Below are positions 3,217-61,280 of a stretch of 64,000 bases of DNA, piece after piece. A model generated the notes under the pieces. It saw only the letters and a list, made by a program, of their open reading frames with translations, was not told where the DNA came from and did no database searches. The stretch's first letter is position 1, and each line of letters opens with the position of its first letter. The stretch covers positions 2,653 to 66,652 of the forward strand of contig JAQTPW010000001.1 in assembly GCA_028712565.1 (NCBI GenBank), read 5' to 3'. The position numbers and the translations under genes are program-made. This DNA is from Minisyncoccota bacterium. Its GTDB lineage: Bacteria > Patescibacteriota > Minisyncoccia > Minisyncoccales > JAQTPW01.

Positions 3217-3246
3217 TTTACACTAAATTTGCTAAAGTGGTAGTAT
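3217..3246 (+). promoter_or_regulatory. Conserved promoter module (copy 2)
   Basis: TTTACA (3217-3222), 18 nt, TGG-TAGTAT (3241-3246). ATG at 3254, suggesting a leaderless or near-leaderless mRNA. Confidence 0.55.
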
Positions 3247-14140: not shown

Positions 14141-14231
14141 TTAACACAAAGCCGAAAAGCATTATGTTAAGTTGGCACAAAACTGAAAAGTTTATGTCAA
14201 GAATTGACACAAAGCCGAAAAGCATTATATT
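14141..14231 (+). promoter_or_regulatory. Duplicated promoter upstream of ftsZ
   Basis: 25-bp direct repeat TT(A/G)ACACAAAGCCGAAAAGCATTAT at 14141-14165 and 14204-14228. Proximal copy: TTGACA (14204-14209), 16 nt, TATATT (14226-14231), ATG at 14238. Confidence 0.6.
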
Positions 14232-15671: not shown

Positions 15672-15694
15672 ACTGGCTCAAGGGCCAGTTTTTT
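15672..15694 (+). terminator. Rho-independent terminator of ftsZ
   Basis: ACTGGC-TCAAGG-GCCAGT followed by T6. Confidence 0.8.
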
Positions 15695-15696
15695 GT

Positions 15697-15840
15697 GCGC
15701 TTCGGGAAAGTAAGTTCTGGTACGCGCTTCGCTTGCCCAGCGTGCTCGCTCGCTCAGGTCCTCACCTCGCTCTTCCCTTCGGGAAACCATGCCCGCTCGG
15801 TTCCGGATCGTCCCAAAACTCACTTTCCCTCGCTTTGAAA
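15697..15840. repeat. GC-rich structured repeat, copy 1 (family 'R-eno/ftsZ')
   Basis: Outer arms GGGAAAGTAAGTTCTGG (15704-15720) and CCCAAAACTCACTTTCCC (15812-15829). The core shares a 36-nt identical block CCTCGCTCTTCCCTTCGGGAAACCATGCCCGCTCGG with 20788-20823. Confidence 0.85.
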
Positions 15841-16092
15841 AAGTGAAATGCGAAAGCGTGCCCCGAAAAGGCGGTTTTTGTTTTTGTGAAGGCTTGATTT
15901 TCCTTTCAAGTTTATTAAAATCTAAAATCATAGTAAATTAACAAATAAGGAGGAGTTAATGAGGATTGTAAACATTGAGAAGAATCGTCAAAGCCTCGCT
16001 ATTTTATGATGAGCGAAGACAAACAAATATGTAGACCTGCCTCGCTTATTTTTATTGTAAATTTAAATATGATAATATAGATAAATAAATAT

Positions 16093-38663: not shown

Positions 38664-38795
38664 AAAACGTAGAGAGATTTAATTAATAATATGGCAAAGA
38701 AAAAAGGAAAAAAAGGAGGCTGTTCTTGCTAAAGGATAGATAGTAAAATAAATTGGAGATTATAAATCAGGAAATCTCGTCCTGGTTTTTATTTG

Positions 38796-38930: not shown

Positions 38931-39056
38931 CCCCGTTAGAAATTTGCTTGTGGCTGATAAGATATACTAAATATTATTCTTTATTTAGTTTCAGTCTTGC
39001 TGGAAAAGATTGCTATCTTTTCCAGCCGGGAAAACATAGGCAAATTTCTAACGGGG
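38931..39056. repeat. Inverted-repeat element T1 (CCCCGTTAGAA family)
   Basis: Perfect 17-bp arms CCCCGTTAGAAATTTGC (38931-38947) / GCAAATTTCTAACGGGG (39040-39056). Inner 11-bp hairpin CTGGAAAAGAT/ATCTTTTCCAG. Confidence 0.9.
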
Positions 39057-39111: not shown

Positions 39112-39126
39112 TTTAGAGTTGTCCCG
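39112..39126 (+). other. 5' strand of the pre-16S processing stem
   Basis: TTTAGAGTTGTCCCG is the exact reverse complement of CGGGACAACTCTAAA at 41738-41752 (15 bp). This is an RNase III-type stem bracketing the 16S. Confidence 0.75.
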
Positions 39127-39250: not shown

Positions 39251-40620
39251 TTTTTTTGAGGATTTGATCCTGGTCCAGGATGAACGCTGGCGGCGTGGAT
39301 AAGGCATGCAAGTCGTGCGGCCTGAGTCGCAAGACGAAGGCAGCGGCAAACGGGTTAATAACACGTAGATTACCAACCCCAATCACGGGCATAATCCGCC
39401 GAAAGGCGGACTAATTCCCGATGGTCCGCGCGGGCGTAAGCTTTGCGCGGTAAAGACGTAAGTCGGAATGGGATGGGTCTGCGGCCCATCAGCTAGTTGG
39501 TGAGGTAAAGGCCCACCAAGGCGATGACGGGTAGGGGGGATGAGAGTCTATTCCCCAACAAGGACACTGCGACACGGGTCCTACTCCTACGGGAGGCAGC
39601 AGTCGAGGATATTCGGCAATGGGCGAAAGCCTGACCGAGCGACGCCGCGTGAACGAAGAAGGACTTCGGTCTGTAAAATTCTTTTCTAGGGGATGAACCC
39701 GCAAGGGTGACAGTACCCTAGGAATAAGGGGGTGCAAATTCTGTGCCAGCAGCCGCGGTAAGACAGAACCCCCAAGCGTTATCCGGATTTATTGGGCGTA
39801 AAGGGTCCGTAGGTGTCCCATCGCATCTTTTGTTAAACTTTCAAGGCTCAACCTTGGAAATGCGAAAGACATGGATGGGATTGAGGGCATTAAGGGCTGA
39901 TGGAACGGTCGGTGTAGGGGTGAAATCCGTTGATATCGATCGGAACACCAAAAGCGAAAGCATTCAGCTAGGGTGACCCTGACACTGAGGGACGAAAGCG
40001 TGGGGAGCAAAAAGGATTAGATACCCTTGTAGTCCACGCTGTAAACAATGAACACTAGCTATCTGAAGTGTCGACCCTTCGGGTGGCGAAGCCAACGCAT
40101 TAAGTGTTCCGCCTGGGAAGTACGATGGCAACATTAAAACTCAAAGGAATAGACGGGGACTCACACAAGCGGTGGATCATGTGGCTCAATTCGACAACAA
40201 ACGAGGAACCTTACCAGGACTTGAAAAGCTAGTGAAATCCGCCAGAAACGGCGGACTACCCACAAGGACACTAGCCCAGGTGCTGCATGGTTGTCGTCAG
40301 CTCGTACTCTGAAGCGTACGCTTAAGTGCGATAACGAGCGCAACCCTTATTGTTTGTTTTATTTGTCAAACGAAACCGCCCGCGATAAGCGGGAGGAAGG
40401 TAAGGATGACGCCAAATCAGCACGGCCCTTTGATGTCCTGGGCTGCACACATGATACAATGGGGCTGACAATGGGTTGCCAAGCCGTAAGGCGGAGCTAA
40501 TCCCATCAAACGGTCCCTCAATTCGGATTGAGGTCTGCAACTTGACCTCATGAAGCCGGAATCGCTAGTAATCGCCAATCAGCTATGTGGCGATGAATAT
40601 GTTCCTGAGTCTTGTACTCA

Positions 40621-41480
40621 CAATAAAAGCGCTCGGCAGTTTATTTTTCTATGCGGTTAAAATCCGCGCCTCTAGCCGTCCTAGAGAGTAGCCAAAGGAT
40701 AGTTTGTTACCGCGAGGTAATAAGCGAAGGATTCGGCGGCAAAAGACAGCCCGAACAAAAAAAGGCAAACCGACCCATCAATGAGCGGTGAGGATGGGGA
40801 AGGTCAAAGTAAAGCCTGTTTGGGATGCCCGGAAGAGAAAATTAAATAACCCGAGGAGATCTGACGTTGTTGCCATGAAAATTGCATGGTATAATGAACT
40901 TACGCAGCGTCAGAAGTCAGCTGAATCATAGTAACCTGAGTCCTAAATTTATAAAAGGACAAAGGAGAAGGATTCACTCTAGTAATTATGCTTAATCCTA
41001 ATTATATCGTAGGTTTAGTTGATGGAGAGGGAAGCTTTACGGTGTACGTAAGGCAACCTAATTCTGCCAAGAAAGTAAAACGAAGAGCGAGAGCGGAACC
41101 AAGATTTTATCTGAAACTTATAGAGAAAGATAAAGATATTCTCTATATGATCAAAAGATTCTTTTCTTGCGGAAGCGTTTATTTCCAGAAAGATAATCGT
41201 ATAAACCATCAAAATTGTTATCGATACGAAGTGGCAAACAGAAAAGATTTGGAAGAAATTATTATTCCTTTTTTCAAACGGCATCAACTGAAATTATTGT
41301 CGAAGAAAAAAGATTTCCGGATTTTCTGTGAATTAATGAGAAGAATTAAAAAAGGAGAACATCATACGAAATTAGGATTACGGCATTTATATCTTATAAA
41401 ACAAGGTATGCATTAGAGCTCGTCGCATGCGGGAAATCTGCAGGTGCGATGGGAACATCAACTCTAAGTTCGTAGAGGAT
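40621..41480 (+). mobile_element. Intron (probably group I) in 16S at the site equivalent to E. coli ~1395-1400
   Basis: Conserved ..CTTGTACTCAC stops at about 40621 and ..CTCGCCCGTCACGCC resumes at about 41482. The junction is ambiguous over a repeated ACTC (+/-6 nt). The insert carries a LAGLIDADG ORF. Confidence 0.8.
40988..41416 (+). CDS. LAGLIDADG homing endonuclease (single-motif, I-CreI-like)
   Basis: 142 aa. ..NYIVGLVDGEGSF.. motif, basic DNA-binding saddle. Located inside the 16S intron. Confidence 0.88.
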   Translation: MLNPNYIVGLVDGEGSFTVYVRQPNSAKKVKRRARAEPRFYLKLIEKDKDILYMIKRFFSCGSVYFQKDNRINHQNCYRYEVANRKDLEEIIIPFFKRHQLKLLSKKKDFRIFCELMRRIKKGEHHTKLGLRHLYLIKQGMH

Positions 41481-41804
41481 ACTCGCCCGTCACGCCAAGC
41501 GAGCTGGGAATAGCCAAAGTTCTCCGCAAGGAGACCTAAGCTGGGCTCAGTGAGAGGGGCGAAGTCGTAACAAGGCACGCGTAGGGGAACCTGCACGTGG
41601 ATAAATTATTTTTTTCTAGTATTTCTTAATGAGATACTAGAGTCGACTAAAGTTGAAGGGCGAAAATTTTCTCTTTAACTTTAAGGTGTTAATCTCTAAC
41701 CTAAAATAAAGATTCCTTGGTCTCGCGGAACGAGACCCGGGACAACTCTAAAGGACTAAATCGTGGAAACTAGTAACTGGTTTACTAGTAACTAGTAACA
41801 AACT

Positions 41805-41824
41805 TCGGGCATTGCCCGATTTTT
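41805..41824 (+). terminator. Terminator-like hairpin after the 16S trailer
   Basis: TCGGG-CATTG-CCCGA followed by T5. Lies just past the processing stem. Confidence 0.55.
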
Positions 41825-41860
41825 GGTTTGATAGAAGTTCGGGTTTGGCGATATACCCGT

Positions 41861-41896
41861 ATATTATTAACATAGCTATCGCTTGGTTAGTAATAT
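41861..41896 (+). promoter_or_regulatory. Conserved hairpin/promoter-like motif, copy A (ATAGCTATCGC family)
   Basis: ATATTATTAAC-ATAGCTATCGCTTG-GTTAGTAATAT. Can also be read as TTAACA, 18 nt, TAATAT. Confidence 0.55.
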
Positions 41897-41902
41897 TCTG
41901 TA

Positions 41903-41999
41903 TTAGTTGGTAATTTTAATGTTTTGGTTTGGCGATTCGAAAGTAAGGTCCTAGCCAGTCCAAGGAGAGATTTCCAATTATTTCTCCTTTTTCTTTTTA
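41903..41999 (+). ncRNA. Candidate small RNA (about 95 nt) between motif A and a terminator
   Basis: Lies downstream of the -10-like TAATAT (41891-41896). Ends in a 9-bp hairpin AAGGAGAGA/TTTCTCCTT (41962-41989) followed by TTTTCTTTTT. No family recognised. Confidence 0.25.
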
Positions 42000-42091
42000 A
42001 TAATTTTTTAATCTTAAAATTATAAGCTATAAGTGGGTTCTATCTTTGCCCAGAGTCCGATTTTTATAACACTAAATCTCCTCCCTTTATC

Positions 42092-42124
42092 GGGGCGGGC
42101 GGCAAATCGCGCGCCGCCCGCCCC
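42092..42124. other. Extreme GC hairpin
   Basis: GGGGCGGGCGGC-AAATCGCGC-GCCGCCCGCCCC, a perfect 12-bp G/C stem in otherwise AT-rich DNA. Confidence 0.85.
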
Positions 42125-42236
42125 CAAAAGCCCTTTAAAAATTTATATGGTGGAGAAAAATTCGCAGTTCGGCCGTATACGATCAAAGAGCAGGTCTGTC
42201 CGAAAGAACCATTACCTAATAAGGATAAATAGTTCC

Positions 42237-42287
42237 GCTATAGCTCAGCGAATCCGCGGAAACTCTAGTTAACCGCGGCTCCACCGA
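42237..42287 (+). pseudogene. tRNA-Ala-like relic (internally deleted)
   Basis: GCTATAGCTCAGC ... CCGCGGCTCCACC resembles the 5' (GGGGCTATAGCTCAGC) and 3' (..GCTCCACCA) ends of bacterial tRNA-Ala. The middle is replaced by a CCGCGG-N13-CCGCGG hairpin. Confidence 0.35.
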
Positions 42288-42300
42288 CCCGAAAATCGTA

Positions 42301-42335
42301 AGCCAGATGAATCAATCTTCGATTCCTGGCTTTTG
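42301..42335 (+). terminator. Rho-independent terminator
   Basis: AGCCAG..GAATC..GATTC..CTGGCT followed by TTTTGTGTTTTT. Confidence 0.6.
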
Positions 42336-42400
42336 TGTTTTTAGAGATAAATTATCGCAAAAATTTTTCCATTTTTTTTGCTACAATATCTGTAGCACCA

Positions 42401-42437
42401 TATATTATTAATATAGCTATCGCCTAGATAATAATAT
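42401..42437 (+). promoter_or_regulatory. Conserved hairpin/promoter-like motif, copy B
   Basis: TATATTATTAAT-ATAGCTATCGCCTAG-ATAATAATAT. Confidence 0.55.
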
Positions 42438-42614
42438 TTGATATTTACTGATTAAAATTAGTGATGTTTTATTGTAGCTTGTTTTTTTAATTATTTTTTG
42501 TTAAAATCTTAAATTGAAAGTTAAATTTTCTATATGCCCCGCAGTAGAATTTTGAACCCTACGGAGGCGTATAAAATTTTTTCTAAATTTTAATTCAAAA
42601 TTCACTGACAGGGT

Positions 42615-43082
42615 ATGCAAATACCGGCAAAAATTTTAAAATTCTTGGATTCGAAAAAGATAAAATATGTTGTAATAAATCATAGGACAGTTTATACTGC
42701 TTATGATAAAGCCACGACGTTGAAGGTGAAACCGAATGTGATTGGAAAGACACTGGTTTTGAAAATAGATTCCAACTTAATTATGGTTTTGGTGCCGGGA
42801 AATAAAAATTTGGATTTGTCAAAAATAAAAAAAGCAGTTGGTGTCCAAAAAATTAATATAGTTTCTGAAACGATTATAAAAAATAAATTCAAGGGAATAA
42901 AAATCGGCGCGATTCCGCCAGCGGCGGAAATTTGGAAATTACGGATATTTATTGATAATAATTTGATGAAAGAAAAAAATATTTTTGTAAATTCGGGAAT
43001 TTACGAAGCATCATTCAAATTATCGCCAAAAGTTTTCGAAAAGTTGGGAGCGGTCGTGGGAAATTTTGGCAAACCCCGTTAG
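42615..43082 (+). CDS. YbaK/ProX-type aminoacyl-tRNA trans-editing (deacylase) domain protein
   Basis: 155 aa. ..VIGKTLVLKID..LIMVLVPGNKNLDLSKIKK.. layout of the YbaK family. The stop codon TAG lies inside the arm of repeat T2 (CCCCGTTAG). Confidence 0.65.
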   Translation: MQIPAKILKFLDSKKIKYVVINHRTVYTAYDKATTLKVKPNVIGKTLVLKIDSNLIMVLVPGNKNLDLSKIKKAVGVQKINIVSETIIKNKFKGIKIGAIPPAAEIWKLRIFIDNNLMKEKNIFVNSGIYEASFKLSPKVFEKLGAVVGNFGKPR

Positions 43083-43185
43083 AAGTTTTGCTAAGATCTG
43101 TGGTAGATTTATAATTTTAAAGATCAAATCGGCTCCGCCTTAAGTAAGATTTTATAAAAAATCTTTAGCGGAACTTCTAACGGGG
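43074..43185. repeat. Inverted-repeat element T2 (CCCCGTTAGAA family)
   Basis: Arms CCCCGTTAGAAGTT (43074-43087) / AACTTCTAACGGGG (43172-43185). Inner hairpin AAGATTTT-ATAA-AAAATCTT. Confidence 0.88.
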
Positions 43186-43305
43186 CAAAGCTAAAAAATA
43201 AAATTTGGGCGGAACGTAAAATCGCTTTGCGATTAACGTTCCAGCCCCGTGAATTTTCAAGATCAAATTTTAAGGGCGATTAGCTCAGCTGGTTAGAGCG
43301 CGTCA

Positions 43306-43456
43306 ATGCTTAATTGATTTTCATAAGCGAGAAAACGGGGGCGTGTAGCTCAGTTGGTTAGAGCACGTCACTGATAATGACGGGGTCAGAGGTTCGAGTC
43401 CTCTCATGCCCACTCTCGCTTATGAAAATCAATTATCCGACGAGCGTAGTGAGGAG
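43306..43456 (+). other. Intervening sequence: 22-bp perfect helix capped by a whole tRNA gene
   Basis: TAATTGATTTTCATAAGCGAGA (43311-43332) is the exact reverse complement of 43414-43435. tRNA-Ile (43339-43412) sits between the two arms. Confidence 0.85.
43339..43412 (+). tRNA. tRNA-Ile (anticodon GAU)
   Basis: Acceptor GGGCGTG/CATGCCC, D stem GCTC/GAGC, anticodon stem CGTCA/TGACG with loop CT-GAT-AA, T arm AGAGG-TTCGAGT-CCTCT, discriminator A. No CCA. Confidence 0.9.
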
Positions 43457-43503
43457 ATCATAATGACGAGGTCAATGGTTCGAGTCCATTATCGCCCACA
43501 AAG

Positions 43504-43575
43504 GGGCCTGTAGTTCAGTGGTAGAACACCCGGTTTGCATCCGGGAGATCGGGAGTCCAAATCTCCCCGGGTCCA
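43504..43575 (+). tRNA. tRNA-Ala (anticodon UGC)
   Basis: Acceptor GGGCCTG/CGGGTCC with G3:U70, D stem GTTC/GAAC, anticodon stem CCCGG/CCGGG with loop TT-TGC-AT, T arm GGGAG-TCCAAAT-CTCCC (unusual C55). Confidence 0.8.
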
Positions 43576-43613
43576 CCGAGTCAAACTCGGTTTGACCGAG
43601 TCAAACTCGGTTT
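43576..43613 (+). terminator. Two tandem identical terminator hairpins
   Basis: CCGAGT-CAA-ACTCGG-TTT repeated at 43576-43593 and 43596-43613. Confidence 0.7.
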
Positions 43614-43701
43614 ACGAGTTTGCGAGGTAGGCAAGTCAGACTTGCCACAATATTTTATAGCAATACCATTTGCAACGTTAGACGTTGCATAAAAAAGAAA
43701 A

Positions 43702-43731
43702 TTTTTCATATTTATTTTTATACAAAAAATC
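43702..43731. repeat. Left copy of a ~26-30-bp direct repeat bracketing the two orphan genes
   Basis: TTTTTCATA..TTTTATACAAAAAATC. The 16-mer TTTTATACAAAAAATC (43716-43731) is identical to 44841-44856. Both copies are followed by a hairpin plus T-run. Confidence 0.75.
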
Positions 43732-43878
43732 ATCCTTCGACACGGCTCAAGATGTTTTTTTATTCTTGACAAACTAAGCTCTGTACGGGGGAATAAAATC
43801 TGATATGATTTTACTAACGAGTTAAGCTCGTTAAAATAAAAAAATTGGGAGATAAATTTTTTATCTCGGGAGGAAAAA

Positions 43879-44364
43879 ATGAATGAGTTGGCTAATGTAA
43901 CTGACGCAAGAATTAACCAGATTGCTTTAGGTACCATGGGTATTTTTTTGAGGGAACATCCCGTTCCGGAAGATGAAAATAAGTACAAGATGTTTGTGGG
44001 CATATACCAGATGTGTGAGGGTATGTGTAAGGAATGGGAAATGGCAGAGATTAAGGTGACCCCCAGCGAACTTCTTGAAGTTTTCTCGTATGTAGTAGGT
44101 GGCGGAAGCGAGGTAATTTCCGACAGGATGGGACAGATCGCAAACGCCTTCATGAGTATTAAATTGCGAGAAAAGAATCGAGGGGAAGTTGAGGGCGTCA
44201 AACATGTAATTGTCAAATATGTCTGCCCAAAGCCTGAAATGACAAGGATAAATGCCTTGCCTGAAGAACTTTTCGCGGCATATATGCGGATCCGTGTAAA
44301 AATTCTTCGGCACGAGAAGAATCAACCACTTTCCGTCGGGAGCTCCAATAGGAGCGAGAGTTAA
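43879..44364 (+). CDS. Hypothetical protein (orphan), strong SD
   Basis: 161 aa. GGGAGG lies 7 nt upstream of the ATG. By eye, local GC is higher than in the flanks, and long antisense ORFs are probably a by-product of this. No motif recognised. Confidence 0.55.
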   Translation: MNELANVTDARINQIALGTMGIFLREHPVPEDENKYKMFVGIYQMCEGMCKEWEMAEIKVTPSELLEVFSYVVGGGSEVISDRMGQIANAFMSIKLREKNRGEVEGVKHVIVKYVCPKPEMTRINALPEELFAAYMRIRVKILRHEKNQPLSVGSSNRSES

Positions 44365-44570
44365 AAAAAAGATTTAATTTCAAAAAGTCTTAGAAAAAAG
44401 TCCTTAGGGTTCAAAAACTCTTTGGACTTTTTCATTTGTGAAAAATTTGTTTACTTAAGCTTAAAAAAATACGCTCTATACAGGGCAAAGAGAATTTGCT
44501 ATATTGTATTAACGAGCTAAAAGAGCTTATTTTATAAAGGTCGCGGTAATTAAAAAATTTTTATATTCAT

Positions 44571-44825
44571 ATGGCAAAAGCTAATTCAGCATTTATGAAG
44601 CCAATGAAAGTCAGCGAAGATTTATCAGCTGTCGTCGGCAAAGGCCCCCTTCCAAGATCCGAAGTTGTTAAGAAACTTTGGGCATACATTAAGAAGAACG
44701 GCCTTCAGGATGCAAAGAATAAACGCAATATTAACGCTGATGCTAATTTGAAAAAAGTTTTCGGCGGAAAAGGGACAGTTAATATGTTTGAGATGACAAA
44801 GCTTGTTTCAAAGCATCTTTCATAA
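44571..44825 (+). CDS. SWIB/MDM2 domain protein
   Basis: 84 aa. ..LSAVVGKGPLPRSEVVKKLWAYIKKNGLQD..NINADANLKKVFG.. is the typical SWIB core. Confidence 0.85.
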   Translation: MAKANSAFMKPMKVSEDLSAVVGKGPLPRSEVVKKLWAYIKKNGLQDAKNKRNINADANLKKVFGGKGTVNMFEMTKLVSKHLS

Positions 44826-44830
44826 GCCAG

Positions 44831-44876
44831 TTTTTCATTATTTTATACAAAAAATCCGTTGTAAGGCGGATTTTTT
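44831..44876. repeat. Right copy of the direct repeat, plus terminator hairpin
   Basis: TTTTTCATTATTTTATACAAAAAATC, then CCG-TTGTAAG-CGG within AATCCG..CGGATT, then T6. Confidence 0.75.
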
Positions 44877-44996
44877 GTTGGAGAAAGATAAGTTTTCCAC
44901 AGCCGGGCTTTTATGTTTTTGCATACACTGTATAATAGACTAATGACAAAAAAGGTCGAATAAATTGTTATAATAAAACCTTAAATTTAATAAACT

Positions 44997-45689
44997 ATGT
45001 TTTTTCAAAATTTAGGAATATCAATTAGCGACGCTCTGATAAATATCTGGAATAGATTTATAAATTTTGCTCCAAATATCATAGTGGCAATAATTATTTT
45101 TGTTATTGGCTGGTTTATTGCGCTTTTTGTTGGAAAATTAATTGCTGAAATCCTAAAGAGATTGAAATTCAATGAGATTTTTGAGAAAGGAAATTGGGAT
45201 GAGGCACTGGCAAAAGCTGATATTAAAGTAGATGTATCTGAGTTTATTGGAGCTATTTTCAAATGGGTTTTAGTGATTGTTTTTCTTCAGCTTTCAGTTG
45301 GTCTTTTGGGTTGGATGCAATTTACCTTGCTTTTGGATAAAATTATAAATTATCTTCCGCATGTAATAGTTGCGGCTTTGATTTTTGTTGTTACAGTTGT
45401 GGTTGTTGATATTGTTGAAAAGTTAGTCAGGGTTACCGTAGAAAGAATGAAAGTGGGCTATGGCCAGACAGTTAGCGCGGTTGTCAGGTGGGCGATTTGG
45501 ACTTTTGCAATTCTGATGATTTTACGGGAATTGATTATTGTGCCTGCATTTATTGACACGATATTTAACGCAATGATTTATGGGACAGTGGCATTTTTGG
45601 TGATATCTTTTGGGCTTTCATTTGGCTTGGGCGGGAAGGAGGCTGCGGCAAAAATGATTGAAGAATTAAAGAGCAAAATTGCAAGATAG
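44997..45689 (+). CDS. Membrane protein with conserved-TM-helix repeats (mechanosensitive-channel-related family)
   Basis: 230 aa, 4-5 TM segments, with repeated ..II.F.IGW..A..VGK.. type helices. Confidence 0.5.
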   Translation: MFFQNLGISISDALINIWNRFINFAPNIIVAIIIFVIGWFIALFVGKLIAEILKRLKFNEIFEKGNWDEALAKADIKVDVSEFIGAIFKWVLVIVFLQLSVGLLGWMQFTLLLDKIINYLPHVIVAALIFVVTVVVVDIVEKLVRVTVERMKVGYGQTVSAVVRWAIWTFAILMILRELIIVPAFIDTIFNAMIYGTVAFLVISFGLSFGLGGKEAAAKMIEELKSKIAR

Positions 45690-45713
45690 GTTTCTTTATT
45701 AATGTGCATAACC

Positions 45714-45740
45714 AATGCCGCCCTCTTCGGGGGCGGCATT
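45714..45740 (+). terminator. Strong hairpin (no clear T-run)
   Basis: AATGCCGCCC-TCTTCGG-GGGCGGCATT, 10-bp perfect stem. Confidence 0.5.
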
Positions 45741-45753
45741 GTATATTGCGGGC

Positions 45754-45781
45754 TTGACACGCACTTTTGTTTTGCTAATAT
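45754..45781 (+). promoter_or_regulatory. Sigma70-like promoter upstream of 23S
   Basis: TTGACA (45754-45759), 16 nt including TGC, then TAATAT (45776-45781). Confidence 0.55.
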
Positions 45782-46332
45782 ATTAGCAGGATTATATATG
45801 AATATAAAAACAAAAACTATAAACAAAGAGAGCGGCTAATTTGCTGTTTTTCGCGCGTGATTGAAGCCGCTTCTCCAAAGCGGTTTTTGTTTTTTCAGTA
45901 GAGCAACTTCGACAAAAGTTTTTAAAGAAAACTTTTAAATCTTAAAAAGAGTCGAAGATGTCTTGCTGGATTTTTCCGAACGGTAAGAACTTTAAAAATT
46001 TATCAGTAAATATTAGGGTCTACAATTAATTAAATTATTTAAAACGATTATTAATTGCTAGCCAAGATGGTAAATTAAGGGCGTATGGTGGATGCCTTGG
46101 GAGATTGAGGCGATGAAGGACGCGGCGTGACTGCGATAAGCCTCGGGTAGGTGTCTAGCAACCTCTAATCCGGGGATTTCCGAATGGGGAAACCCAATTC
46201 CATTTTATGGAATTGCCCTGAGAGCAATCGAAGGGCGCATACCCGCTGAAGCGAAACATCCCAGTAAGCGGAGGAAAAGAAAAAAACTTTTTATTTCCTG
46301 AGTAGCGGCGAGCGAAAAGGAAACAGTCCAAA

Positions 46333-46479
46333 CTTATTACTCCTCACTATTGTTCGGAGCAAAATAATCCGAATATCATCCGAATCTTATCCGAATGCTA
46401 CGAATTTAATTTGCAGATTCGGATTTCATTCGTAGATTCGTATTATTTTTAGCGACGAGCAGCAGCGAGGAGTAATGAG
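46333..46479 (+). repeat. Insertion E2 in 23S domain I, homologous to intergenic repeat E1
   Basis: 24-bp imperfect stem CTTATTACTCCTCACTATTGTTCG / CGACGAGCAGCAGCGAGGAGTAATGAG. The interior aligns with 38805-38890. Confidence 0.85.
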
Positions 46480-46731
46480 GGTTGCAAGGAAATGTCGTCG
46501 GGAGCACCCCTCACGTTGAATTAAATTAATGTGAGGGGTTAACCCGAGGGAGAATATTTAGATAAAGTTTTGCTAGTTAAATGCCCCTGGAACGGGCAAC
46601 CATAGAAGGTAATAGTCCTGTAAACGAAAACAACTTTATGCTCCTTGATGTTTTTCTTAAGTACCACGGGAAAAGAAAGTCCTGTGGGAAACAGGCCCAA
46701 CTATAAGGGCCAAGACTAAATACTCAATCTC

Positions 46732-46770
<39 letters not shown>

Positions 46771-46828
46771 CAGGGAGGTGATCCCGGTGAAATAGAAACT
46801 GAAACCATATGCTCACAAAAAGTTCGAG

Positions 46829-46979
46829 CCCCGTTACAATTTTGCTCCTGACATGGCGAGCGAAGCGCGAGTGGCGAATAGCCACATCCTTTTATGGGCG
46901 CAGCGCTTCGCCCAGCAAGGGTGCACCTATTCGGTGCGCGCGCTGCGCAAAATAATTCAGAGGCAAAATTGTAACGGGG
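46829..46979 (+). repeat. Intervening sequence T3 replacing the tip of 23S helix 25 (CCCCGTTA family arms)
   Basis: Perfect 17-bp arms CCCCGTTACAATTTTGC / GCAAAATTGTAACGGGG around a GC-rich core. Flanked by ..GTTCGAG and TGAGAGCGTAC.., which correspond to E. coli ..GTGGGAGC[H25]GTGACTGCGTACC. Confidence 0.85.
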
Positions 46980-49125
46980 TGAGAGCGTACTTTTTGGAGA
47001 ACGAGCCAACGAGTTTCTTCACGCTTTTTGTCTAAGCCCCTATGGGGCGGAGGCGTAGTGAAAGCAAGCGTTAATAGCGCAAAAAAATAAAGCGTGGGGA
47101 AGACCCGAAGCCAAGCGAGCTTGCCATGATCAGGGCGAACTCTGGAGAAATCTGGAGGGAGGCCCGAACCTATGAGCCGTGCAATACTCTGGGACGAATT
47201 GTGGCAAGAAGAGAAAACCTAAACGAGCTTGGTAATAGCTGGTTCTCCCCGAAACAGCTTTGGGGCTAATGGCAGGTAAAAACTTTTGGAGGTAGAGCAC
47301 TAAATGGATAACCGTGGACTTCGTCCAGGTAATCCAATTAAACTCCGAATACCAGAAGTCTATTTCCTGCTAGCAAGACCGTGGGGGCTAAGCTTCACGG
47401 TCAAAAGGGAAGCAGCCCAGATCTTCATCTAAGGTCCCTAAACTGAGCTAAGTGTTATTAAGGAAGTGGAGTTCCTTTGATAGTTAGGAGGTTTGCTTAG
47501 AAGCAGTAACCCTTTAAAAAGTGCGTAACAGCTTACTAACTAAGGAATTCTGCGCTAAAGATTTAGGGGCTAAGCTCAGTACCGAAGATAAGAATGAACA
47601 TGCAATTTATTGCGTGTTCGTGGTAGGGGAGCGTCCTGCTCGCAGCGAAGATAAATCGTAAGATTTGTTGGAGTGAGCAGGAGTGAAAATGTTGGCATGA
47701 GTAACCGCAATGCAGGTGAAATCCCTGCACACCGAAAACCTAAAGTTTCCTTGGCAACGACAATCGGCCAAGGGTTAGGCGGTCCTTAGCTGAACCCGAA
47801 AGGGGCAAGTGATGGACAGCCGGTTAATATTCCGGCCCTCTGGCCTATTTTTTAGGAAGTGACGAAATTTAGTAACTCGGGCTAATTATGGATTTTAGTT
47901 TTTGCCTTAAGATTTTTCAAAAGGCAAGAAAATGTTCCCCCTCGGGGGGATAAATCCGAGCGAGCAAGTTTCCCAGAAAAACTTCCAAGAGTTAAATAGG
48001 CCGGATCCGTACCAAAACCGACACAGGTAGGTTGGTGTGAATACACTAAGGTGAACGGGCGAAGCCTCGTTAAGGAACTCGGCAAAAAAGTGTTCGTACG
48101 TTCGCAATAAGAACTTCCCGAACCCGCAAGGGTGAGGGACGCAGCGAAAGTTTTCCAGGCGACTGTTTATCAAAAACACAGGTCCCTGCTCAACTCGCAA
48201 GAGGATGTATAGGGGCTGAAGTCTGACCAGCGCTGGAATGTTAAAGGTGAGGGTTGCTTCCGCAAGGGAGTAGCTCATTGCACTAAGCTTCCAGTCAGCG
48301 TCCGCCGTAACTATAACGGTGTTAAAGTAGCGTATCCCCTTGTCAGGTAAGTTCTGACCCGCATGAAAGACTTCACGACTTGGAAACTGTCTCAACGAGG
48401 AGCTCGGTGAAAACACAATACCGGTAAAGATGCCGGTTACCTGCGGCTAGACGGAAAGACCCCGGGAGCTTTACTGTAACTAGATATTGAATTTTGGTTT
48501 TGGATGCGTAGCGTAGAGGTGAGGATTTGAGGCCGCGATCTCGGTTGCGGCTGATCCGACAATGAAACAGCCTTCTTTCGAAACCACAGTTCTAACCCCC
48601 ATTAAATTGGGGAGACAGTGTCTGGCGGTCAGTTTAAGTGGGGCACTTGCCTCCTAAAATGTAATGGAGGCGTTTAAAGGTCGGCTAACTCCGGATGGAA
48701 ATCGGAGTGGTCGTGCAAAGGCATAAGCCGGCTTTACTGCAAGAACTATATTTCGCGCAGTTGGGAAACCAGAACTTAGTGAACCGACGGATTCTCATAG
48801 AAAATCCGAAGATCATCAACCAAAAGTTACCCCGGGGATAACAGGCTAGTAGGACCCGCGAGTCCATATCAACGGTCCTGTTCGGCACCTCGATGTCGGC
48901 TCTCCGCATCCTGGAGGTGAAGTCGCTTCCAAGGGTCTGACTGTTCGCCAGTTAAAGCGGAACGTGAGCTGGGTTCAGTACGTCGTAAGACAGTACGGTC
49001 CCTATCTACCGTAGGCGTTGAATCTTGAGGGGACTTGGGAATAGTACGAGAGGACTTTCCTGAACTGACCTCTGGTGTACCAGCTGTTCTGCCAAGAGCA
49101 TTGCTGGGTAGCTATGTCGGGAACT

Positions 49126-49156
<31 letters not shown>

Positions 49157-49373
49157 AAACCCCAAGATTAGGATTCATAGATTCCAGAGAGACCATCTGG
49201 TCGATAGACTGCCGGTGTAAGCTCCGTAAGGGGTTAAGCCAAGCAGCACTAATAAATCATTACACAAATCTTGACTAGCAATTAATGATCATTGGAAAAT
49301 AATTTAACTAATATTTTAAACCTTAGCGAAAGGCGGCGCGTCAAACGTGCCAGGCCTCGTGAGAGGGCGCTGA

Positions 49374-49487
49374 GGTGGCGGTTATACTGGCATTGTCCCA
49401 CCTGTTCCCATTCCGAACACAGAAGTGAAATATGCCAAGGCCGATGATAGTATCCTTTTGGATGCGAAAGTAGGAAGCTGCCACCTT
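49374..49487 (+). rRNA. rrf: 5S rRNA
   Basis: GGTGGCGGTTATAC...CCCACCTGTTCCCATTCCGAACACAGAAGTGAAA...GTAGGAAGCTGCCACC. The terminal helix closes correctly. Confidence 0.9.
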
Positions 49488-52675: not shown

Positions 52676-52715
52676 GTATATTACTAACATAGCTATCGCC
52701 AAGATAGTAATATAT
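52676..52715 (+). promoter_or_regulatory. Conserved hairpin/promoter-like motif, copy C
   Basis: GTATATTACTAAC-ATAGCTATCGCCAAGA-TAGTAATATAT. Abuts or overlaps ATG 52714 of the PaaX-like gene. Confidence 0.6.
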
Positions 52716-53304
52716 GATATACGAAAGTATGAGTAAATATAAATATTATTTTAGAAAACCAAGATCGGAAATTATAAAAGATTTTTTAAACACGCTACTA
52801 GTTGCGGGCACCATTACGATTGCCGCTTCTTCTCCTTATTTTATTGTTAATTTATTAAAAGCCAATAAAAGTTTTAGGCGGTATCCAAAGCCGAGGATTG
52901 CCGATACTTTCGCGCGTTTGAAAAGGGAAGGATTAGTAGAAACCGTACGGCGTAATGGACAAATTTATATAAAACTTACTGATAAGGGAGAAAAGAAAGC
53001 CGGTTTTTACCAAATTAATAGTTTGAAAATAAAAAAACCGAAAAAATGGGATGATAAATGGAGAATTGTTATTTTTGATATTTCTGAGCTAAAAAGAAGC
53101 CACCGGGAAGCTTTTCGAGGAAAATTAAAGGAATTAGGATTTAAATCTCTTCAAAAAAGCGTTTGGGTGCATCCTTTCCAATGTAAAGATGAGATAGCGC
53201 TCCTGCGTGATTTTTTCGGTTTGGAAAAAAATGATATTCGCATAATAGTTGCCGAAGAAATCGAAAATAGCGCCGATTTAAAGAAATATTTTCTTCTTAA
53301 TTAA
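52714..53304 (+). CDS. PaaX-like regulator: TM segment + winged helix + PaaX/Cas2-fold domain (paralog 1)
   Basis: 196 aa. ..FARLKREGLVETVRRNGQIYIKLTDKG.. (wHTH) and ..WDDKWRIVIFDISELKRSHREAFRGKLKELGFKSLQKSVWVHP... The start may be ATG 52729. Confidence 0.65.
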   Translation: MIYESMSKYKYYFRKPRSEIIKDFLNTLLVAGTITIAASSPYFIVNLLKANKSFRRYPKPRIADTFARLKREGLVETVRRNGQIYIKLTDKGEKKAGFYQINSLKIKKPKKWDDKWRIVIFDISELKRSHREAFRGKLKELGFKSLQKSVWVHPFQCKDEIALLRDFFGLEKNDIRIIVAEEIENSADLKKYFLLN

Positions 53305-53453: not shown

Positions 53454-53804
53454 TTAAAGGAGGCGAGGTAATATTATTTCTCGGCAACAATCAACGTTAA
53501 AGTCAAAAATTGGTGCTATTTTTGGTTGGCGAGCAATCCACTCCCAAGATTTTCTATTCCAGTATTTCAAGGCCATAAGCGCCAGTTCAGAAGATACACT
53601 GTAAACTAATTTGGGGCCATAGTTTTCTTCTGGATTTATTTCTGAATCAAGATTTATTGCTGGACCAACGACTATTTGTTTTGGTCCTTCAGCTTGAAAA
53701 ATTATTCCAATCCATCCTTTGCGTATTTCCTCAGGGATGCCGGGCCCTTCTGGAGTTTTAACTATCGCTATTAACTTCTTATTTGTCATTTTTCCTTCCT
53801 CCAA
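53454..53804 (-). CDS. Hypothetical protein (orphan), strong SD
   Basis: 116 aa. On its own strand GGAGGAAGGAAAA precedes the ATG. It is a lone minus-strand gene in a + strand array. Confidence 0.55.
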   Translation of the reverse strand: MEEGKMTNKKLIAIVKTPEGPGIPEEIRKGWIGIIFQAEGPKQIVVGPAINLDSEINPEENYGPKLVYSVSSELALMALKYWNRKSWEWIARQPKIAPIFDFNVDCCREIILPRLL

Positions 53805-58960: not shown

Positions 58961-58991
58961 AAATGCCGTCGTCAGAAGACGGACGGCATTT
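58961..58991. terminator. Bidirectional terminator between murF and the minus-strand orphan
   Basis: AAATGCCGTCGTC-AGAA-GACGGACGGCATTT (13 bp, one bulge), with an A-run before and a T-run after. Confidence 0.8.
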
Positions 58992-59012
58992 ACGACGAAG
59001 TGCTTAAACGTA

Positions 59013-59228
59013 TTATTTCTTCTCTATGACTTTAACTCGGAACCAAAATGTTTCGTATGGGTTTCTCCAACCGGTCGGAATCATAATACATGCGCAGCCG
59101 TATTGTTTTAGACTTTCAAATAGCTGCTCCATCGATTCCGGGATTTTCGATAGATCCATACCCGTAATGTCTGGCGTCAAAGACATTGTTAAGCTTCCGT
59201 CTTTTTCTGCTACTATTTTCGCATTCAT
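59013..59228 (-). CDS. Hypothetical small protein (orphan), strong SD
   Basis: 71 aa. On its own strand AAGGAGGTATGAA precedes the ATG. Lone minus-strand gene. Confidence 0.55.
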   Translation of the reverse strand: MNAKIVAEKDGSLTMSLTPDITGMDLSKIPESMEQLFESLKQYGCACIMIPTGWRNPYETFWFRVKVIEKK

Positions 59229-59266
59229 TTCATACCTCCTTACAGAAAAATAATATTACATAAATA

Positions 59267-60739
59267 ATGTTTTGTCAATATTTAAACCCAAAACCAATAT
59301 CGATTTCTTTGTCTCCTAATACTGAAAAGGATGATATCCTATTGGCTTTTAAGTTGCTTTGGAAACCTTGGCGATGGAAATTCAGCGTAAATCAGCGTAA
59401 CAATCAGCGTCAATCAGCTTCTACGATTTTAGAAGAGGAATTTAAAAAATATTTGGGAGTAAAATATGCCATATCATTTAACAGCGGGAGGTCGGCGTTG
59501 ATGGCAATATTGGCTGCTCTTTTCGGAGAGCAGGCATCCTCCGAAGCCTTGGCGAAGGAGGATGAGGAGGTTCTTTTACAAGCCTTCACTTGTAACGCAG
59601 TTCCAAATCCGGTTATTTGGTCCCGCCTTCGCGAGGCCGAAGCTCGCTACGGCGAGGCAAAGGCCCGCCTTCGCGAGGCCGAAGCTCGCTACGGCGAGGC
59701 AAAGGCCCGCCTTCGCGATGACGCTTCGGCGAGGCAAGCAGGCTTGAAACCTATTTATGTAGATTGCAACGAAAATACATTTAACATTGATCCAGAAGAT
59801 TTAAGGCGTAAGATTACGTCAAACAGCCGCGCCGTAATAGTCCAGCACACTTTCGGTTTGCCCGCAGAAATGGATGAAATTATAAAAATTTGTCAGGCAC
59901 ATAATTTAATATTAATTGAAGATTGCGCGCATTCTTTAGGTGCTACCTATAAAGGAAAAAAGATCGGAACCTTCGGCAGAGTTTCATTTTTCAGTTTTTC
60001 CAGAGATAAAGTAATTTCTTCAGTTTACGGCGGAATGGTAGTTACTTCTGATGATGAACTTGCAAAAAAAATTAAGGAATACCAGGAAAGAATCGGTTAT
60101 CCTTCATATTTTTGGATTCTTCAGCAATTATTGCACCCTGTATTAATGAATTGGCTTATTTTGCCAACATATAAATATTTTGGAAAATATTTATTGATTT
60201 TATTCCAATGGCTTCACATTTTTTCAAAAGCCGTCCATTGGAAGGAAAAGAGGGGGCAAAAACCCTGTTATTTTCCAAAGCGTTTACCAGATGCCTTGGC
60301 AATTTTGGCTCAAAACCAATTTCGGAAATTGGAAAAATTCAACCGGCATCGCCGGGAAATCGCCGAATTTTATAATCGCGAATTAGCCGATACCAGCTAC
60401 CAGCTACCAGTTACCAGCGACGGCGACATTTTCCTTCGTTATGCAATAAAACATCCGAACGCTCATCAAATTATTCAGAAGGCATGGAGTCATAATCTAT
60501 TGGTTGGGGATTGGTATACAACGCCGATTGCTCCGCATGATACTAAATTAGAAAAAATGCAATATACTTTAGGGAGTTGCCCAAATGCGGAAAAATTGGC
60601 AAAAATTACATTAAATTTGCCGACTCATATTAATATTTCGGTGAAAGATGCCCAAAAAATCGTAGACTTTTTAAAAAAAATAAGTAAAAACAATAAAGAC
60701 CATAATACGATTTCCACGGCCGTAGAAAAAGTATTATAA
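59267..60739 (+). CDS. DegT/DnrJ/EryC1/StrS-family PLP aminotransferase carrying several in-frame repeat insertions
   Basis: 490 aa, against my recollection that this family is usually about 370-400 aa. ..ISFNSGRSALMAIL.., ..LIEDCAHSLGATYKGKKIG.., ..FFSFSRDKVIS.. (PLP Lys context). Confidence 0.85.
   Translation: MFCQYLNPKPISISLSPNTEKDDILLAFKLLWKPWRWKFSVNQRNNQRQSASTILEEEFKKYLGVKYAISFNSGRSALMAILAALFGEQASSEALAKEDEEVLLQAFTCNAVPNPVIWSRLREAEARYGEAKARLREAEARYGEAKARLRDDASARQAGLKPIYVDCNENTFNIDPEDLRRKITSNSRAVIVQHTFGLPAEMDEIIKICQAHNLILIEDCAHSLGATYKGKKIGTFGRVSFFSFSRDKVISSVYGGMVVTSDDELAKKIKEYQERIGYPSYFWILQQLLHPVLMNWLILPTYKYFGKYLLILFQWLHIFSKAVHWKEKRGQKPCYFPKRLPDALAILAQNQFRKLEKFNRHRREIAEFYNRELADTSYQLPVTSDGDIFLRYAIKHPNAHQIIQKAWSHNLLVGDWYTTPIAPHDTKLEKMQYTLGSCPNAEKLAKITLNLPTHINISVKDAQKIVDFLKKISKNNKDHNTISTAVEKVL
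59381..59418 (+). repeat. In-frame short tandem repeat (A)ATCAGCGTAA
   Basis: TTCAGCGTAAATCAGCGTAACAATCAGCGTCAATCAGC encodes FSVNQRNNQRQS. Same unit as in the 16S leader (39211-39250). Confidence 0.8.
59525..59570 (+). repeat. In-frame GC-rich palindromic insert
   Basis: CCTCCGAAGCCTTGGCGAAGGAGG folds as CCTCC/GGAGG plus GCC/GGC. Encodes ..ASSEALAKEDE.. between conserved AILAAL and EVLLQAFTC. Confidence 0.65.
59622..59742 (+). repeat. In-frame 42-bp GC-rich tandem repeat (2 full units plus a diverged third)
   Basis: CCCGCCTTCGCGAGGCCGAAGCTCGCTACGGCGAGGCAAAGG at 59622-59663 and 59664-59705, with a diverged copy to about 59742. Encodes RLREAEARYGEAKA x2. Confidence 0.9.
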
Positions 60740-60740
60740 T
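60705..60740. repeat. Left copy of 33-bp direct repeat (3' end of the DegT-family gene)
   Basis: TACGATTTCCACGGCCGTAGAAAAAGTATTATA (60708-60740) versus 61281-61313, one mismatch. Contains the palindrome ACGGCCGT. Confidence 0.9.
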
Positions 60741-60749
60741 TAAATAAAT

Positions 60750-61280
60750 ATGAAATTTCCAGTTACCGATAGATTTTTATGGGATTTATATGATTTTCTT
60801 GAAAAGGCAGGTGATATTTATGATGTTTTTTTGGCACGACCCTGGAAAGAAGTTTGGTCTCCGGAACTTCACAAATTTAGATATGAATGGAAGAAAAAGA
60901 AGGATCGAAAATTATTCAGTCGGCTTGTTTATTATTTAAAAAAGAAAGGGTATATAAAGACTAAAAATTTAGAGGAAAAAGAAGCTGTTTTGTTAACAAG
61001 GAAAGGAGCCGATAAGATTTTGAAATTGAAACTTAAAGAAAGTAATAAAAAGAAAAGACCAGACGGAAAGTGGCAAATGGTAATTTTTGATATCCCCGAA
61101 AGAAAGCGTTTTTTAAGAGATTTACTTAGAGAAAATCTTTATCTTTTAGGCTATCAACTGTTGCAACAAAGTATTTGGGTTTGTCCATATGATGTTTCAT
61201 ATAAAACAGAAATAATTCTCAATAAATATTCCCTTGATCAATACGTAAAAACATTTTTAATTAAAGAAATAGAAGTATAG
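60750..61280 (+). CDS. PaaX-like regulator with wHTH + PaaX/Cas2-fold domain (paralog 2)
   Basis: 176 aa. ..LVYYLKKKGYIKTKNLEEKEAVLLTRKG.. and ..PDGKWQMVIFDIPERKRFLRDLLRENLYLLGYQLLQQSIWVCP... Confidence 0.65.
   Translation: MKFPVTDRFLWDLYDFLEKAGDIYDVFLARPWKEVWSPELHKFRYEWKKKKDRKLFSRLVYYLKKKGYIKTKNLEEKEAVLLTRKGADKILKLKLKESNKKKRPDGKWQMVIFDIPERKRFLRDLLRENLYLLGYQLLQQSIWVCPYDVSYKTEIILNKYSLDQYVKTFLIKEIEV

Follow-up and report, generated by a model that had tools for sequence, protein, structure and literature searches.

The 16S ribosomal RNA (rRNA) gene in a 64,000-nucleotide stretch of contig JAQTPW010000001.1 (hereafter the window) lacks the anti-Shine-Dalgarno (anti-SD) sequence at the position homologous to it. 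Very probably, this sole visible 16S gene has truly lost the motif by substitution, translation starts are chosen without SD pairing, and the strong SD motifs of the window belong to accessory or orphan genes. The host group is Parcubacteria/Paceibacteria, in the candidate phyla radiation (CPR): the NCBI name is 'Candidatus Pacebacteria bacterium', with locus tags PHF44_, and the relatives recovered through helix 45 and the 16S trailer are Patescibacteria/Parcubacteria metagenome-assembled genomes (MAGs). A LAGLIDADG-bearing insertion in the 16S gene and unlinked rRNA genes also fit a CPR placement. SD/anti-SD pairing is a textbook feature of bacterial translation, and a large clade of free-living or episymbiotic bacteria that has lost the rRNA partner offers a natural experiment in how starts are selected independently of SD sequences.

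The 16S rRNA 3' end in the window and in related genomes

The 16S gene, which lies on the plus strand together with the processing features described below, is otherwise intact. Its 5' exon (39252-40621; Rfam SSU_rRNA_bacteria match, 1270.6 bits) runs to approximately E. coli position 1399 and is followed by an insertion of ~861 nt (40622-41482), which appears as a gap in the covariance-model alignment and has boundaries uncertain by ~2 nt because of an AC repeat. An open reading frame (ORF) within the insertion (40988-41416) encodes a LAGLIDADG endonuclease (Pfam LAGLIDADG_1, E=1.5e-17). The insertion matched no Rfam group I intron model, and a group II D1-D4 match inside it (40876-40973, 28.6 bits, E=0.017) is below threshold. 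The 3' exon (41483-41602; 79.9 bits, E=3.5e-23) comprises helix 44, helix 45 (41574-41600, intact but for one C·A mismatch) and GGAU, and the GGAA loop and the decoding-site sequence are both present. When this exon was searched by itself with the bacterial SSU covariance model (Infernal), the last 12 model positions (1522-1533; AUcACCUCCUUu) fell on AUAAAUUAUUUU at 41601-41612 with top posterior probability. In the covariance-model alignment, the tail AAAUUAUUUUUUUC (41603-41616) is the positional homologue of CACCUCCUUUCU but holds no anti-SD; it is composed of A and U only, and the GAUCA box is changed to GAUAA. A plus-strand motif scan agrees with the alignment, as CCTCC is absent from 39252-41752 (16S and trailer), and between 39000 and 46100 it occurs once, at 42080. 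The preliminary description of this DNA, which had reported an intact helix 45 without CCTCC at the expected place, is thus borne out.

The loss extends well beyond the window. One genome per GTDB species was scanned for the helix-45 pattern GTCGTAACAAGGCANNNGTAGGGGAACCTGNNNNTGGAT, and the 91 matching loci are almost all from Patescibacteria/Parcubacteria MAGs. CCUCC is absent from 69 of these 91 16S genes, kept in 19 (where the sequence continues CACCTCCTTT) and partial in 3. The 69 anti-SD-less tails contain A, U and C only (for instance CAATTAATTT, CATTTCATTT, CATATAATTT and CACTACATTT); their consensus, CAUUUCAUUUU, has 0.6% G and looks as though CACCUCCUUU had decayed stepwise, from C to U/A, with its length unchanged. 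Judged from these sequences, loss of the anti-SD is apparently a clade-wide, vertically inherited trait and not a local accident.

Trailers of both classes share one layout, consisting of the tail, an optional hairpin, (G)TGTCGAC, a hairpin whose loop is of the GAGAAUUCU type, one more hairpin and, last, a CGGRRCAACTC box. In the relatives that retain CACCUCCUUU, it stands directly after GGAU and is followed by the same hairpins. The window trailer (41616-41737) shows exactly this layout, with hairpin 1 at 41616-41640, the GTCGAC box at 41642-47, and hairpins 2 to 4 at ~41647-41686, ~41689-41714 and 41719-41737; therefore, the A/U tail occupies the anti-SD position. The trailer ends at the 3' strand of a processing stem (CGGGACAACTCTAAA, 41738-41752), which corresponds to the conserved CGGRRCAACTC box of the relatives and is perfectly complementary over 15 nt to a 5' strand in the leader (TTTAGAGTTGTCCCG, 39112-39126), so that a perfect 15-bp stem encloses the pre-16S. 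Among 30 related loci having both flanks, 20 carry a perfect complement of this box in the 5' leader, and the stem sequences co-vary among relatives (CTCTAA, CTTCAA, CTCCAA, CTCAGA).

The closest relative, L046, is an independent MAG that is identical to the window through helix 44; helix 45 differs by CA/TG in its 3' strand (GCACG in the window, GTGCG in L046). It carries GGAUAAAUUAUUUUUCUAG, and its tail, GGATAAATTATTTTTCTAG, is nearly identical to that of the window. The two sequences remain closely similar through the processing stem, with scattered substitutions and short indels, and are diverged after ~41755.

These comparisons bear on the alternative, raised in the preliminary description, that an additional insertion of about 110 nt at the 3' end has displaced a degenerate anti-SD. 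The pyrimidine tract GATTCCTTGG is indeed located at 41711-41720, and after processing or splicing either its UUCCUU or the CUCCUCC at 42078-42084 would become the tail. CPR rRNA genes do have insertions, as the ~861 nt in this 16S gene illustrate; GAUUCCUUGG is identical in L046; and CUCCUCCCUUUA placed after GGAU would look like GGAUCACCUCCUUA. However, GAUUCCUUGG is the 3' arm of trailer hairpin 3 together with the foot of the next hairpin, its GAUU being paired with AAUC in hairpin 3. Among 70 anti-SD-less trailers TCCTT occurs in 23% and CCTCC in 6%, at no fixed place. The lone CCTCC at 42080, which is followed by a GC hairpin (42075-42125), lies outside the rRNA and past the processing stem, L046 does not conserve it, and no Rfam intron model matched there at E<1. 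Given that no downstream motif is conserved and that the trailer layout is shared with relatives that keep CACCUCCUUU right after GGAU, the displacement idea was rejected as extremely unlikely.

A second alternative is that the rrs copy in the window is decaying, chimeric or mis-assembled and that a normal 16S gene with an anti-SD lies elsewhere in the genome. The contig from which the 64 kb come is at least 174 kb long, and rRNA regions of MAGs are prone to mis-assembly. Nevertheless, this is a full-length match with helices 44 and 45, GGAA loop and decoding site intact, and it belongs to a complete array (Rfam) of 16S from 39252, tRNA-Ile(GAU), tRNA-Ala(UGC), 23S (46065-49273) and 5S (49374-49486). 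The same tail is found in the independent L046 and analogous tails in 69 other genomes. CPR genomes normally have one rrn copy, and the messenger RNAs of the window lack an SD signal, as expected if no ribosome bears an anti-SD. A second, normal copy is therefore very unlikely, and substitution within the only visible gene remains the preferred reading: the 13-14 nt after GGAU would correspond in position to CACCUCCUUUCU and have decayed to A and U only.

Two further features of the trailers were observed. The GTCGAC box and the GAGAAUUCU-type-loop hairpin lie 15-50 nt past the 16S 3' end in loci L003-L093, whether an anti-SD is present or not, and are probably a conserved pre-rRNA processing element, of which no earlier description was found. 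Additionally, in many relatives a terminator-like hairpin closes the 16S trailer, and the 16S in these is probably transcribed alone.

Translation starts in the window and in relatives

The window contains 61 likely genes, 54 of which have Pfam or NCBIfam families; these identify rpsB, tsf, rplY, lysS, serS, ftsZ, a galU-like gene, gap, eno, fba, prfA and obg, as well as murF, mreCD and a PBP2. The 25 nt upstream of window genes are rich in A and T and pair with a canonical anti-SD only very rarely, and the upstream regions of all twelve genes from rpsB to obg in this list, among them the housekeeping genes singled out in the preliminary description, were found to be A/T-rich and without GGAGG. 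SD-type 5-mers at -20..-5 precede 3% of window genes, with 2-3% in control zones; thus, no SD signal above background was found in the window by this measure. Similarly, such 5-mers precede 8% of genes beside anti-SD-less 16S genes in relatives (control zones 5-8%), in contrast to 14% beside anti-SD-positive 16S genes (control zones 5-7%). SD 4-mers also differ between the anti-SD-positive and anti-SD-less relatives (Fisher P=0.027), and the positional profile peaks at -20..-6 in the anti-SD-positive group only.

The SD signal of the mRNAs thus tracks the rRNA motif, and SD use is low even in Parcubacteria that retain the anti-SD. Loss of the motif would then be understandable as relaxed constraint, having arisen in a lineage already low in SD use. 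The earlier suggestion of SD-independent initiation in the host is supported by the missing anti-SD, by its clade-wide loss and by the lack of an SD signal above background.

If SD pairing is not used, starts may be selected by three routes. The first would depend on A-rich, G/C-poor and unstructured start regions. At -8..-2 A accounts for 50-59% of bases and G and C for at most 15% each (C ≤8%; G ≤10% from -5), while T reaches 64% at -1; mean folding energy in 40-nt segments is least stable at the start, with -2.2 kcal/mol versus -4.5 to -5.5 kcal/mol 60-135 nt inside genes. The second would be termination-reinitiation coupling in tightly packed operons, which the packing of the window suits, as 25 of 60 genes overlap the upstream gene or sit ≤10 nt from it. 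The third would be the use of leaderless or very short-leader mRNAs for some first operon genes. The -10-like hexamers previously reported ahead of three genes were confirmed (TAGTAT 3241-3246, TATATT 14226-14231, TATAAT 60735-60740). There are three or four clear cases in the window of such a hexamer ending 6-8 nt before the ATG, among them those at 2542, 11131 and 14238, the last having a perfect TTGACA -35 box at 16 nt from TATATT. In the pooled anti-SD-less relatives, -10-like hexamers at 6-8 nt number 0.16 per gene versus ~0.04 per 3-nt bin, a 3-4 times enrichment that is also seen at operon-internal genes. Leaderless or very short-leader mRNAs are therefore no more than plausible for a subset of genes, as read from promoter-like sequence. 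The release factor encoded in the window is RF1 (prfA), so that the prfB frameshift is inapplicable as an internal test of SD pairing.

A different possibility is that the U-rich tail (UUAUUUUUUU) pairs with A-rich leaders, such as the AAAAAAAUAAU that precedes the ATG at 5527, as a new SD/anti-SD system. The A content of the leaders just upstream of starts would suit such pairing, and the tail is single-stranded and G-free across the clade. However, when the leaders of each of 84 loci were compared energetically against their own tail and all others, the 69 anti-SD-less loci showed no preference for their own tail (centred ΔΔG -0.10 kcal/mol, permutation P=0.14), whereas anti-SD-positive loci did (centred energy -0.57 kcal/mol). 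The window tail ranks only 16th of 52 tails on its own leaders, tail sequence is not conserved between lineages, and A/U-only duplexes are weak. A replacement pairing is thus very improbable, and start selection without SD pairing is favoured.

Small orphan genes with strong SD motifs

GGAGG occurs nine times in the window outside the gene list, and two of these (208 and 214) probably belong to a gene that the edge of the window truncates. Of the ~7 that are truly intergenic, 4 lie 5-8 nt before an ATG ORF, where ~0.4 would be expected. Three of the seven orphan genes have an SD and none of the 54 family-annotated genes does (hypergeometric P≈0.001, calculated by hand). Two of the four ORFs are on the plus strand: a mini-ORF of 16 codons (MRIVNIEKNRQSLAIL; 15947-16009 with its motif) with AAGGAGG 5 nt before the ATG at 15959, upstream of the galU-like gene, and a 161-aa orphan (43867-44364) with GGGAGG 5 nt before the ATG at 43879, in the 16S-23S spacer. 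The other two are minus-strand genes in an otherwise plus-strand region, each with a promoter and a terminator of its own, which fits accessory genes. One is a 111-aa orphan (53454-53802) with GGAGGAAGGA before the ATG at 53789, followed by a terminator, and the other a 71-aa orphan (59013-59275) with AAGGAGGT 5-6 nt before the ATG at 59228, a consensus TTGACA-17-TATTAT promoter and a terminator at 58965-59000. The strong motifs noted earlier at these four ORFs are thus present, but the start of the 111-aa gene had been misplaced at 53804, which is an upstream TTG.

None of the 161-aa, 111-aa and 71-aa proteins matched Pfam, PHROG or NCBIfam, and their histories differ. The 161-aa protein has no homologue besides itself among 5.8 billion protein clusters, and its ORF has the highest G+C content at third codon positions (GC3) in the window (z=+3.2), consistent with recent acquisition. 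The 111-aa protein (AlphaFold model with a mean predicted local distance difference test score, pLDDT, of 49) has a homologue, P0003 from JGI 3300075153, with 59% identity and the same PBP2/orphan/lysS/serS synteny. Another homologue in L095 (Ga0265297_10000444; 52% identity), in a different context, has AGGAGG 6 nt ahead of its ATG and belongs to a cluster of small ORFs with AAGGAGG leaders adjoining SD-less genes. The 71-aa protein has a homologue in L094 (ERZ27247960 k141_1004049) with 67% identity and the same convergent arrangement with murF, and there the TTGACA -35 box and AAGGAGG are kept while the bases between them are changed. The SD is thus kept in both homologues with readable DNA, of which the one in L095 is not syntenic. 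The earlier proposal that the SD-bearing orphans are recently acquired consequently fits the 161-aa ORF and agrees with the G+C-rich SD-bearing ORFs of relatives, but fails for the 111-aa and 71-aa genes: with homologues of 52-67% identity and a conserved SD, these are not recent arrivals.

In the anti-SD-less relatives, 9 of the 10 strongest SD ORFs have no Pfam family, and strong-SD ORFs tend to be richer in GC3 than the genes beside them (mean difference +0.095, Wilcoxon P=0.03), with extremes in L013, L027 and L093. Two trivial origins of SD-bearing ORFs were ruled out. They are not artefacts within rRNA genes or introns, as they lie outside all rRNA BLAST matches, and they do not form a single protein family, as all-against-all BLASTP found no mutual similarity. 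The likeliest explanation is that they are horizontally acquired accessory genes that brought their SD from SD-using donors, most likely including the approximately half of Parcubacteria that retain the anti-SD, and they would be translated in the host regardless of the motif.

Several points weigh against the overall interpretation. The 16S 3' end was placed by alignment and trailer layout, and the 64 kb covered leave room for a second rrs copy elsewhere. The -10 peak at 6-8 nt may be partly compositional, given its presence at operon-internal genes. The SDs of the 71-aa and 111-aa orphans are kept in L094 and L095 while flanking non-coding bases have diverged, which looks like purifying selection on a motif that would be useless without an anti-SD. 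Furthermore, anti-SD-less loci show a 3-4 times enrichment of GGAGG, AGGAG and GGGAG at 4-10 nt ahead of first-ATG ORFs, and control pentamers of the same composition show none.

Such observations would be explained if the GGAGG motifs of the orphans, as distinct from anti-SD loss itself, were functional through a partner other than the tail (a protein that binds RNA, a different RNA or a subset of the ribosomes) and marked separately regulated small genes. In addition to the pentamer enrichment, this idea is favoured by the retention of motif and spacing at 52-67% protein identity, by the L095 cluster and by the occurrence of the motif in the window at 3 of 7 orphans and at none of the 54 annotated genes. 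However, the numbers are small, and many of the SD-bearing ORFs of relatives are compositionally foreign, which fits a motif inherited from SD-using donors. No candidate partner was found: the 16S has no CCUCC, and the CCUCC of the spacer is not conserved. The reading of the conserved SDs in the two older families hinges on the presence or absence of an anti-SD in the organisms of L094 and L095. The functional idea is unlikely, though less so than the alternatives weighed above. In its general form, in which a small lineage-specific gene class of anti-SD-less Parcubacteria keeps AAGGAGG under purifying selection and this implies a reader other than the 16S tail (an RNA or protein partner, or specialised ribosomes), it is equally doubtful; the alternative would be a mobile gene pool shared between anti-SD-positive and anti-SD-less lineages.

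Some observations were made beside these ORFs. The regions upstream of the 161-aa orphan (43740-43881) and of a SWIB-domain gene in the same spacer (44435-44573) have the blocks GCTCTRTACRGGG, TAACGAGYTAA and TTTTTAT in common; 77 of 147 alignment columns (~52%) are identical over ~140 nt, the 'mean column identity' given by the tool being 77%, and the two genes may share a regulatory leader, judging by these blocks. Between the ftsZ terminator and the SD-bearing mini-ORF lies a 210-nt segment (15690-15900) that is, by visual estimate, far G+C-richer than the 37% G+C genome. It has a ~17-bp long-range stem (GGGAAAGUAAGUUCUGG / CCAAAACUCACUUUCCC) around ~110 nt, with folding z-scores of only -1.6 and -1.8, and a minus-strand ORF of 88 aa. 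It was unmatched in an Rfam search and could be a new RNA, a foreign fragment or a small gene. Just 3' of cutA, a tiny ORF at 38693-38734 (ATGGCAAAGAAAAAAGGAAAAAAAGGAGGCTGTTCTTGCTAA; MAKKKGKKGGCSC) has AAGGAGG at 38713 within it, where it does not act as an SD. The genes at 52714-53304 and 60750-61280 encode small proteins that are paralogues of each other and contain a PaaX central (Cas2-like) domain, and the P0003-carrying relative lacks the first of these genes between PBP2 and the orphan.

Relation to known systems and other features of the window

Bacteroidetes reportedly also initiate independently of SD sequences, with SD-less genes, A-rich unstructured starts and a handful of genes with strong SDs. 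The window resembles them in all three respects. However, Bacteroidetes keep CCUCC, which is sequestered by bS21/bS18/bS6 and with which the rare SDs pair conditionally, whereas here the sequence itself is gone; a sequestered anti-SD is thus excluded for the window, given the absence of CCUCC from its 16S.

Loss of the anti-SD is already a published trait of this lineage, affecting about half of Parcubacteria. The motif CCTCCT was detected in only 48% of Parcubacteria, and the motif-less members overlap the group lacking uL1, in which SD helices were suggested not to form (Tsurumaki, Saito, Tomita & Kanai 2022, RNA 28:1041; PMC9297842). The rplK-rplA region lies outside the window. The window belongs to the same phylum-level group, with CCUCCU likewise missing at the 16S 3' end and with rRNA insertions and reduced ribosomes as part of the same picture. 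Its tail is an extreme variant of that kind, as the GAUCA box is lost too. Most CPR bacteria have lost Era, the protein that binds GAUCACCUCC (PMC10582724). The 2022 study of Parcubacteria provided the motif statistic and the uL1 overlap only, and the mRNA side, the trailer layout, the tail decay series and the SD-bearing orphans were not analysed. Full-text searches of the literature turned up no study of SD use, of leaderless transcripts or of orphans with an SD in these bacteria.

Anti-SD loss is also recurrent in tiny or reduced genomes (Lim 2012; Amin 2018; Nikolaeva 2021, PMC7782861). As in the window, it occurs there by substitution in AT-rich reduced genomes, and it is associated with ribosomal protein loss. 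In insect endosymbionts and Mollicutes, however, the loss is scattered among strains, whereas here it affects an environmental clade that is deep and rich in species. Leaderless-rich bacteria (Actinobacteria, Deinococcus; GeneMarkS-2 group C, PMC6028130) share with some genes of the window a -10 box 6-8 nt before the ATG, but they keep the anti-SD and use SDs on leadered genes, and the leaderless signal of the window is only suggestive. Mitochondrial small-subunit rRNA likewise has no anti-SD, is used with leaderless or short-leader mRNAs and has the Era/ERAL1 site reduced to helix 45 (PMC10582724); mitochondria differ in being organelles whose ribosome is radically remodelled and in which dedicated proteins deliver the mRNA.

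Relative to these systems, the window adds that the tail is a decayed positional homologue of the anti-SD and not a displaced one, that relatives keeping the anti-SD use SDs only weakly, and that housekeeping starts are A-rich, unstructured and tightly coupled. The persistence of strong SDs on a few orphans is the only unexpected element, and the orphan-gene class with strong, partly conserved SD motifs is the sole unreported one. In practical terms, gene callers that reward SDs will mis-start genes in anti-SD-less Parcubacteria genomes.

The rRNA region has several other features. The 16S-23S distance is 4.4 kb (41603-46064), and the spacer holds protein genes in addition to the 161-aa orphan, encoding a stand-alone aminoacyl-tRNA editing domain (42615-43082), the SWIB-domain protein (44571-44825) and an MscS-like channel protein (44997-45689). 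At 43274-43503, a second tRNA gene, with anticodon CAT, is apparently split in the anticodon loop by ~151 nt that hold the entire tRNA-Ile(GAT) gene, with a 22-bp inverted repeat (TTAATTGATTTTCATAAGCGAGA / TCTCGCTTATGAAAATCAATTA) on the two sides. When 43274-43306 and 43458-43503 are joined, ARAGORN accepts the resulting 75-nt tRNA. Flanks of this kind were found in 0 of 45 tRNA-Ile(GAT) genes of related loci, and the arrangement could represent gene nesting, a tRNA intron of a new kind or a pseudogene that has been disrupted. At 3209 nt, the 23S gene is longer than the model (2925), with insertions at ~46340-46470, at ~46480-46560 and from ~46830. Finally, three palindromic elements of ~110-150 nt, with termini CCCCGTTAGAA...TTCTAACGGGG (CCCGTTACAA in the third), lie upstream of the 16S (38932-39055), after the tRNA-editing gene (43075-43184) and within a 23S insertion (46830-46978). 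A similar pair, CCCGTTAGAAAT...ATTTCTAACGGG, is found in the 16S trailer of L020, and the elements look like a family resembling miniature inverted-repeat transposable elements that is able to sit inside rRNA.

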